Translations under genes and position numbers: made by a program | The notes under the pieces: model-generated | What the model was told of the DNA's origin: nothing | The model's input: the letters and a program-made list of their open reading frames with translations, nothing else | Database searches by the model: none | NCBI GenBank assembly: GCA_963830365.1 | Contig: CAWHMU010000002.1 | Location: 1-36,007, forward strand | DNA length: 36,007 nucleotides | From: an uncultured Chlamydiae bacterium | GTDB lineage: Bacteria > Chlamydiota > Chlamydiia > Chlamydiales > Parachlamydiaceae | Reading direction: 5' to 3' | In this document: positions 10,926-11,741 of the stretch, piece by piece | Layout: each line of letters begins with the position of its first letter | Numbering within the stretch: the first letter of the stretch is position 1

Positions 10926-11741
10926 TTATAGCTTATTTTGTGCTGCGCCTAAAATTAAATCCAGTTCATCATAAATAGATCTATTGCTAGAAGCTGATTC
11001 AGGAACGCTGTTCTCGCTTCCAGCAAACACTAGTTGATCGTCGCTAGTGTCCATTTCTTCCCTTGATAATACGAATGTCCCAGCAAGGCTTGTAAAAATA
11101 TCATCATCCAACAGTGAAGGGCAGCTTAAGTTAGTAGCTGGCGTTTTTTGGCTAGAAGCTGGCGCAGCCATTGTGCTAAAGTATACAAGTTGCGTTGTCT
11201 GCCCGTTTTGGTTATAAGTATTTGCAGCTGTTTTCGATGGAGATATCATGAATAAATGATGATATTCCCTATTAGCGTTAGTTATGTCATCTAAGCTGTT
11301 ATTGCAAAGATGCTGTAAATCATGGCGATAGCTAGCCGTTTGTGCATTCACATGACTGGTGTTTTCATCCAATATTGCGCTTGGAGAATATAGGCTAATT
11401 TTAGCGCGGGATTTACTTGGCGTTTTAGGGTATTCATATCGACATTCTACACCGTCAAGAAATCTCATATTGGGCTTTAAAACCTCCGATGCAATAGGCG
11501 CTAACTCGTCAAAGAAATCCTTTACACATTTAGCTTCCATTGATCTTTTTTTTGTTTTTTCGGCGGTAAAGGAGGTTGACAATGAAATTGCGCGATTGGC
11601 TTTATCTGCTATTAGGCCAAAAGCAGTCCTATCGTCTCGCTTTATGCTCTGATATTTTTGTGACAATGGGGATTTTGCAGTAATATTTTCCTTATCGTCA
11701 AAATATGTTGCTGTTGGATAAAAACTAGTAATGCCTGTCAT
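10926..11741 (-). CDS. hypothetical disordered protein with KEN-box, D-box-like and CDK motifs; candidate effector
   Basis: 271-aa ORF, GAGG SD; DKEN (16-19), RTAFG..(38-42), TPSK, SPSK. Confidence 0.7.
   Translation of the reverse strand: MTGITSFYPTATYFDDKENITAKSPLSQKYQSIKRDDRTAFGLIADKANRAISLSTSFTAEKTKKRSMEAKCVKDFFDELAPIASEVLKPNMRFLDGVECRYEYPKTPSKSRAKISLYSPSAILDENTSHVNAQTASYRHDLQHLCNNSLDDITNANREYHHLFMISPSKTAANTYNQNGQTTQLVYFSTMAAPASSQKTPATNLSCPSLLDDDIFTSLAGTFVLSREEMDTSDDQLVFAGSENSVPESASSNRSIYDELDLILGAAQNKL

Follow-up and report, generated by a model that had tools for sequence, protein, structure and literature searches.

Acm1, a Cdh1 pseudosubstrate inhibitor of S. cerevisiae (PDB 4BH6), carries a KEN box at K98 and an inhibitory D box, DB3, at R119, the latter being non-consensus at position 9, where Asn is absent (PMC3690534). 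The same source describes a CDK site, S102, directly after the KEN box and a separate D box, DB1, that serves Acm1's own turnover, and it reports a 20-residue KEN/D-box gap in OSD1 and a similar arrangement in Mes1 (PMC3690534). For Hsl1, KEN and D box together lengthen Cdh1 binding about 100-fold; KEN binds Cdc20 poorly, and yeast degrons bind human Cdh1, the degron pockets being conserved (PMC8764033). D boxes with Phe at position 4 are described in human cyclin B3 and Drosophila cyclin A (PMC10487953, PMC5717348), and the Glu patch by which securin inhibits separase was defined by conservation (bioRxiv 10.1101/606285). Among bacterial proteins, Shigella IpaB and E. coli EspF reach the APC/C via MAD2L2, and Cif acts via NEDD8 (PMC8469580, PMC7232420). 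A bacterial KEN/D-box mimic of the APC/C was not found in the literature that we searched, in which few subscription papers were within reach.

Here we examined a stretch of 36,007 nucleotides (the window), whose minus strand encodes an orphan protein of 271 aa. A preliminary description had read this protein as a bacterial mimic of an APC/C substrate or pseudosubstrate. Our analysis leaves degron mimicry at the APC/C a credible but unproven role for it, on roughly even terms with a chance origin of its motifs. The features considered below are, from the 5' to the 3' side of the gene:

11747..11750, minus strand: ribosome-binding-site-like GAGG, 5 nt upstream of the ATG
10926..11741, minus strand: the orphan ORF, 271 codons, GC 0.39, Ser/Thr-rich product
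11697..11741, minus strand: first 15 residues, Ser/Thr/Pro-rich and charge-poor, by composition a possible type III secretion signal
11685..11696, minus strand: KEN box DKEN, aa 16-19, the acidic residue before KEN fitting the consensus, without Pro at +3
11667..11672, minus strand: minimal CDK site S24-P25, between the KEN box and motif 1
11601..11630, minus strand: D-box-like motif 1, RTAFGLI, aa 38-47, with R1, A3, G5 and I7 fitting
11544..11558, minus strand: basic patch KTKKR, aa 62-66
11412..11423, minus strand: full CDK consensus site TPSK, aa 107-110
11298..11327, minus strand: D-box-like motif 2, RHDLQHLCNN, aa 139-148, with R1, L4, L7, N9 and N10 fitting
11274..11303, minus strand: D-box-like tail without the first Arg, ending in SLDDITN, aa 147-156, 4 of 6 positions
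11232..11243, minus strand: full CDK consensus site SPSK, aa 167-170
10965..10979, minus strand: SIYDE, aa 255-259, which fails the published ABBA consensus
10874..10913, no strand assigned: strong hairpin (z -4.7) in the interval between the convergent potD and the orphan ORF

The ORF looks like a genuine gene, since it has the GAGG site, a sense-frame codon-use score of 0.198 that stays inside the range spanned by the long low-GC ORFs of the genome (n = 141, median 0.187), a stop-free frame of a length reached in 0 of 5000 base shuffles of 10926..11741, and a hairpin 3' of it. The other five frames at this position all gave negative codon-use scores. The hairpin is likely a terminator common to potD and the orphan ORF, and it is absent from the output of the terminator scan. 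Ranks and percentiles throughout refer to a mechanical call of 2159 ORFs on this genome, among which the GC of the orphan falls at the 5th percentile. The gene is convergent with potD of the potABCD operon and divergent from a second orphan and a uhpC-type transporter. Its position between potABCD and uhpC-type genes on a single contig disposes of eukaryotic contamination. An antisense ORF of 97 aa (11359-11652) was rejected as a gene. Elsewhere in the window, a very stable 25-bp hairpin (12003-12060, z -11.9) lies between the 5' end of the orphan gene and the divergent orphan at 12191, and since parts of it recur on four further contigs, it may be a small repeated element. Two overlapping plus-strand ORFs, 675-1037 and 1034-1846, look like a single split or frameshifted gene; the former has a weak AAA_33/CPT-type P-loop match below cut-off and the latter continues in another frame.

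The genome (2.73 Mb, 82% complete) is the sole representative of its genus in the set that we searched. Adjacent SctU, SctV and SctW genes score over the NCBIfam cut-offs, a histone-like Hc1 was matched at E 4e-22 in a search that was also positive in 1 of 14 control genomes, and an OmcB-like protein was found below cut-off. SctU, SctV, SctW, Hc1 and OmcB are markers linked to Chlamydiota, and judged from these genes the source is likely an environmental chlamydia living inside eukaryotic cells. A search with TIM as a taxonomic marker gave matches from mixed phyla, the best at 50% identity. One F-box protein match and 14 kinase matches were obtained; searches for U-box, BTB, cyclin and WD40 domains returned no match in this 82%-complete genome, three of the four being empty in the control genomes too. 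The window contains further effector-like ORFs. One, 22059-24281 (plus strand, 740 aa), has a long low-complexity N-terminus followed by a domain of the tyrosine phosphatase family PF00102 (E 3e-18), and five others have no Pfam match over cut-off: 12191-13210, 28362-30317 and 139-489 on the plus strand, and 3332-4039 and 34671-35216 on the minus strand. ORF 12191-13210 has a weak SnoaL-like match and a poly-Ser tail.

In composition, the 271-aa protein is low in hydrophobic residues (6th percentile) and rich in Ser plus Thr (98th percentile). FoldIndex was negative in 11 of 17 windows, with a value of +0.06 for the whole protein. The protein had been called disordered throughout; it is largely so, and the KEN and D-box-like motifs all fall inside negative-FoldIndex windows, but the claim was overstated, residues ~46-131 and 166-221 being borderline or ordered. 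AlphaFold2 run on the single sequence gave an uninformative pLDDT of 30.6, with helices drawn over motifs 1 and 2. The N-terminus ranked at the 94th and 97th percentile of the 2159 ORFs on a crude, home-made composition score. Taken as a whole, the orphan is likely a mostly disordered effector that would be secreted by the type III system.

Translation confirmed the N-terminal YFDDKEN, with KEN at residues 17-19, and the D-box-like stretch RTAFGLIADKAN, which begins at R38, 18 residues past the Asn of KEN. We scored the motifs against published consensus patterns for KEN, D box and ABBA (PMC5717348). The KEN box satisfies 4 of the 5 positions of [DNE]KENxxP, the missing one being Pro at +3. 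Motif 1 has Phe at position 4, as the preliminary description had cautioned in noting F for L, and has neither an acidic residue at position 6 nor Asn at position 9. It scores differently by pattern: 2 of 6 positions of the general D-box consensus as given in PMC5717348, and 4 of 6 of the cyclin-B-type RxALGxIxN as given in PMC10487953, or 5 of 6 if Phe is allowed. The distance from K17 to R38 is 21 residues, the same as from K98 to R119 in Acm1 (PMC3690534). Motif 2, overlooked in the preliminary description, is a canonical RxxLxxLxNN that fits 5 of 6 positions of RxxLx[DE][hydrophobic]xN[NS] and has negative FoldIndex; by the position preferences reported in PMC3690534, its Asp3 and His6 are unfavourable. 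The SLDDITN tail overlaps motif 2 and resembles the tail of Hsl1-derived D-box peptides (PMC12401543). Each KEN- or D-box-like motif of the protein is imperfect, and only their combination is unusual.

The remaining motifs fared unevenly. The full CDK consensus sites TPSK (from residue 107) and SPSK (from 167) are present on translation, and the additional SP/TP sites that had been mentioned number three, at 24, 119 and 200. At least two full CDK sites occur in 57 of the 2159 ORFs (shuffle P 0.027), and the five S/T-P sites of the orphan have a shuffle P of 0.077. The KTKKR patch lies at 62-66 as described and does not match a simple nuclear-localisation pattern. SIYDE is likewise present, at 255-259, but its likeness to an ABBA motif did not hold up: it meets 3 of 4 positions and lacks the first Phe. 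Across the 271-aa protein, the ABBA/A motif Fx[ILV][FY]x[DE] was not found, the best sites reaching 3 of 4, and a looser ABBA pattern also had no match; we rejected SIYDE as an ABBA motif. It resembles a tyrosine-phosphorylation site.

No homologue, eukaryotic or other, was found against which conservation of the motifs could be judged. In a set of 5.8 billion proteins, candidates of near length yielded only the protein itself (1 of 453), while longer and shorter lengths yielded 0 of 1804 and 0 of 21, respectively. Pattern searches of metagenomes, genomes and viral contigs returned 69, 42 and 3 matches, with no homologue confirmed among them, and plasmids, PDB sequences (0 at E up to 10) and the ESM Atlas (whole protein and aa 8-62) contained none. 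No paralogue exists within the genome, and no Pfam or NCBIfam family was recognized in the protein, with 0 Pfam matches even at E up to 5. Weak matches at E <=0.05 appeared in 13 of 400 genomes, where chance alone gives about 20; the 8 of these 13 loci that we inspected held no credible relative, and the one spanning the KEN region lacks KEN. Among 72 family genomes, the single match (E 0.005) is one of these same eight loci. Downstream of potD, the 29 relatives examined, out of 36 with potD, carry widely different genes, none matching the orphan. In two relatives, this site is followed by an apparent kbl-type aminotransferase gene, which in the present genome lies upstream of the pot operon.

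It is quite plausible, though we rate it somewhat under an even chance, that the protein is nothing more than a disordered, fast-evolving orphan effector, in which the KEN, D-box and CDK strings are accidents of a composition rich in Ser, Thr, Asp, Asn and Lys. Its real partner would then lie elsewhere: SIYDEL could address a phosphotyrosine reader, DDIFTSL a protein of the ATG8 type, and DFFDE one of the VAP type. The preliminary description had itself warned that short motifs arise by chance, and every single motif is indeed common in the ORFs of this genome: KEN occurs in 122 of 2159, [DNE]KEN in 23 and a 5-of-6 D box in 34. The pairing of [DNE]KEN with a 5-of-6 D box is found in the 271-aa ORF only (1 of 2159, with 0.4 expected), and shuffling the protein 20,000 times produced it once. 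The KEN plus motif 1 cassette, picked post hoc, recurred in 7 of 400,000 shuffles. Other motifs are equally easy to find, since the post-hoc patterns IYDEL, ILDEN and a terminal NKL each have P ~0.003, which means that motif stories are easily built.

The fairest test is confined to aa 61-271, outside the part on which the preliminary description had made its selection, and uses the published D-box consensus, although motif 2 had been spotted by eye before its test. With composition fixed, the best D box of this region was matched in 1.2% of 30,000 shuffles (P ~0.012), and its best two likewise in 1.2%, which counts against a purely accidental origin. Compared with real sequence, the best D box was equalled in 0.4% of 2463 211-aa windows of the genome and the best two in 0.3%; for 403 low-GC windows the values were 0.25% and 0.7%. 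A weighted composite score of KEN and two D boxes, devised once the motifs were known, placed the protein 1st of 2159 (47.3), followed by a 3034-aa protein (45.7). Per shuffled proteome, this score was reached by 1.03 proteins of all lengths and by 0.033 at <=400 aa, and among short low-GC proteins it was reached in 0 of 60 shuffles. At 0.03 per genome, however, the roughly 250,000 DNA stretches covered by the wider scan imply many such proteins overall, a point in favour of chance.

Two other proteins of the genome drew attention. A second low-GC orphan of 431 aa (G000:C41:82410-83705, minus strand; L314:1911-3206) ranks 7th in composite score: its N-terminal part, rich in Ser and Pro, contains a D-box-like RLPLTPISSN at residue 73, and DKEN stands close to its C-terminus; no relative was found in the 399 other genomes scored and no Pfam family exceeded the cut-off. 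In a 636-aa low-GC kinase-like protein (G000:C3:45802-47712, plus strand), a long N-terminus rich in Ser and Thr precedes the kinase-like part, which itself contains a 5-of-6 D box at 473.

We additionally looked for similar cassettes in real sequences. DKEN followed after 39-69 nt (13-23 codons) by Rx[AP][LF]G was matched 25 times at the DNA level in the 401 phylum genomes. A single out-of-frame antisense artefact accounts for 13 of these matches; 3 lie in frame, and of those the 271-aa gene alone is open. A looser KEN/D-box cassette gave 22 matches in 73 family genomes, 6 in frame and 3 open: the 271-aa gene, a frame overlapping other genes, and an enzyme that we take to be RecJ-like from its DHH motifs. 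Thus 2 of the 21 other family matches are open in frame, which favours chance, as does the spread of [FYHL]xDKEN at the DNA level, which 69 of the 73 family genomes contain about as often as the reversed control pattern. Of 35 cassette matches in viral contigs, 22 were in frame and open, 18 of them belonging to one giant-virus SNF2-like helicase family, and in metagenomes 20 of 103 were open, including RNase J and non-coding frames. Since open in-frame matches turn up in such unrelated enzymes (helicase, RNase J, RecJ-like), KEN/D-box cassettes do arise by chance, mostly in folded enzymes. Set against this, every chance cassette that we could identify sits either in a long folded enzyme or in a non-coding frame; among 29 further DKEN loci inspected, a 5-of-6 D box occurred once, in a 721-residue frame; and the KEN-to-D-box spacing of the orphan is that of Acm1. 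By motif alone, no diverged analogue was recognized in the 401 phylum genomes, the 73 family genomes, the 103 metagenome matches or the 35 viral matches.

The helicases merit a separate remark. At all 18 loci (L279-L312), DKEN is followed 17 residues on by a conserved RNPFGF[IV]N. This pair is probably part of the fold, and we used it as a control for chance; it could conceivably serve as a viral degron. Viral contigs contained 0 Cdc20/Cdh1-like genes.

It is improbable, in our estimate, that the protein is a host-derived piece of a eukaryotic cell-cycle regulator, such as a securin-like, Acm1-like or cyclin/Cdc25 N-terminal tail, with motifs that may be inactive relics. Securins keep little beyond KEN, D boxes and the Glu patch (bioRxiv 10.1101/606285), so a donor of this kind may be undetectable, and the variability of the site downstream of potD, with unrelated genes in the 29 relatives examined, would suit an acquired gene. 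A metagenomic locus (L271:1-450, plus strand) encodes the C-terminus of a coiled-coil protein that looks eukaryotic, has no Pfam family, and in which RRAFGSI follows DKEN; the tail is possibly a eukaryotic pair of KEN and Phe-type D box and lends this origin some support. Against it, neither a eukaryotic homologue nor a Pfam family was found for the orphan, and its codon use agrees with that of other low-GC ORFs of the genome, which fits long residence; motifs without a function would be expected to have eroded. The least probable alternative is a gene that is hardly used, or whose product is not secreted, stays in the bacterium and never meets the APC/C. Although no chaperone gene adjoins the ORF and the N-terminus was scored by crude composition, the intact 271-codon frame, ribosome site, terminator-like hairpin, effector-like composition and T3SS-bearing genome all speak against it.

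Our best reading, tentative and a shade below an even chance, is that the 271-aa protein is a secreted, disordered effector predicted from its sequence to bind host Cdh1 or Cdc20 via its KEN and D-box-like motifs. The APC/C-mimic interpretation of the preliminary description is partly supported: it keeps its footing in the type III secretion setting, the effector-like composition, the Acm1-like spacing and motif 2, while its ABBA element is lost and the chance cassettes weigh against it. The precedents for Phe at position 4 and the F-box and kinase matches of the genome also speak for it; the imperfect motifs, the empty homologue searches, the helices modelled over motifs 1 and 2 and the negative U-box, BTB, cyclin and WD40 searches speak against it. 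Of the two candidate partners, Cdh1 would be likelier than Cdc20, because KEN-containing ligands prefer Cdh1 (PMC8764033). Within the APC/C reading, we slightly favour an inhibitor, itself rather doubtful, over a substrate whose lifetime is simply timed, which we consider unlikely.

By analogy, the effector could be an independently evolved, Acm1-like injected decoy, in which KEN and a Phe-type D box block the coactivator while motif 2 and the CDK sites give cell-cycle dependence; we regard this scheme as a minority possibility. The protein would enter the host by type III secretion. KEN (17-19) and motif 1 would then bind one coactivator jointly, as do KEN and DB3 of Acm1, and such joint docking would compete with host substrates. 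Motif 2 (139-148) might add avidity or time the protein's own destruction, in the manner of DB1 of Acm1, and phosphorylation by host CDK may tune docking to the coactivator. The 431-aa orphan of the same genome may act similarly. Should the motifs prove functional, a bacterium living inside its host cell would steer that cell's mitotic exit or G1 by the cell's own degron code, and the protein would be a convergent copy of Acm1, Mes1 and OSD1. Should they fail, it would merely add to the list of candidate orphan effectors and serve to illustrate how clusters of motifs can mislead.

How the candidate stands among described systems can be stated point by point. Like Acm1, it is small, has a K-to-R distance of 21, a D-box-like motif without Asn9, a CDK site in between and a second, separate D box. 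Unlike Acm1, it is a bacterial gene product with no sequence similarity found and no A/ABBA motif before KEN; it is without Pro at KEN+3, its motif 1 has Phe in place of Leu4 and lacks an acidic position 6, and its extra D box is C-terminal, whereas that of Acm1 is N-terminal. It would therefore act like Acm1, Mes1 and OSD1, yet it is no member of their group, given the lack of homology and of an ABBA motif. With the securins (PTTG1, Pds1, plant PATRONUS), it shares an N-terminal KEN followed by a D box in a poorly structured protein, but unlike them it has no Pfam match. The securin sequence IYVDKEN shows the same aromatic-x-DKEN context as the orphan. Motif 1 resembles two quasi-D boxes, those found in human cyclin B3 and in cyclin A of Drosophila, in its Phe at position 4 and its RxAFG/RxxF setting, while the orphan, in contrast to these cyclins, has neither a cyclin fold nor Asn9. 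As a candidate effector, it would join IpaB, EspF and Cif, type III effectors that interfere with the cell cycle of the host; IpaB and EspF, however, bind an APC/C inhibitor and Cif modifies cullin ligases, and the portions of the sources available (PMC8469580, PMC7232420) describe no KEN/D-box mimicry for them, the very device that the 271-aa protein is predicted to use.
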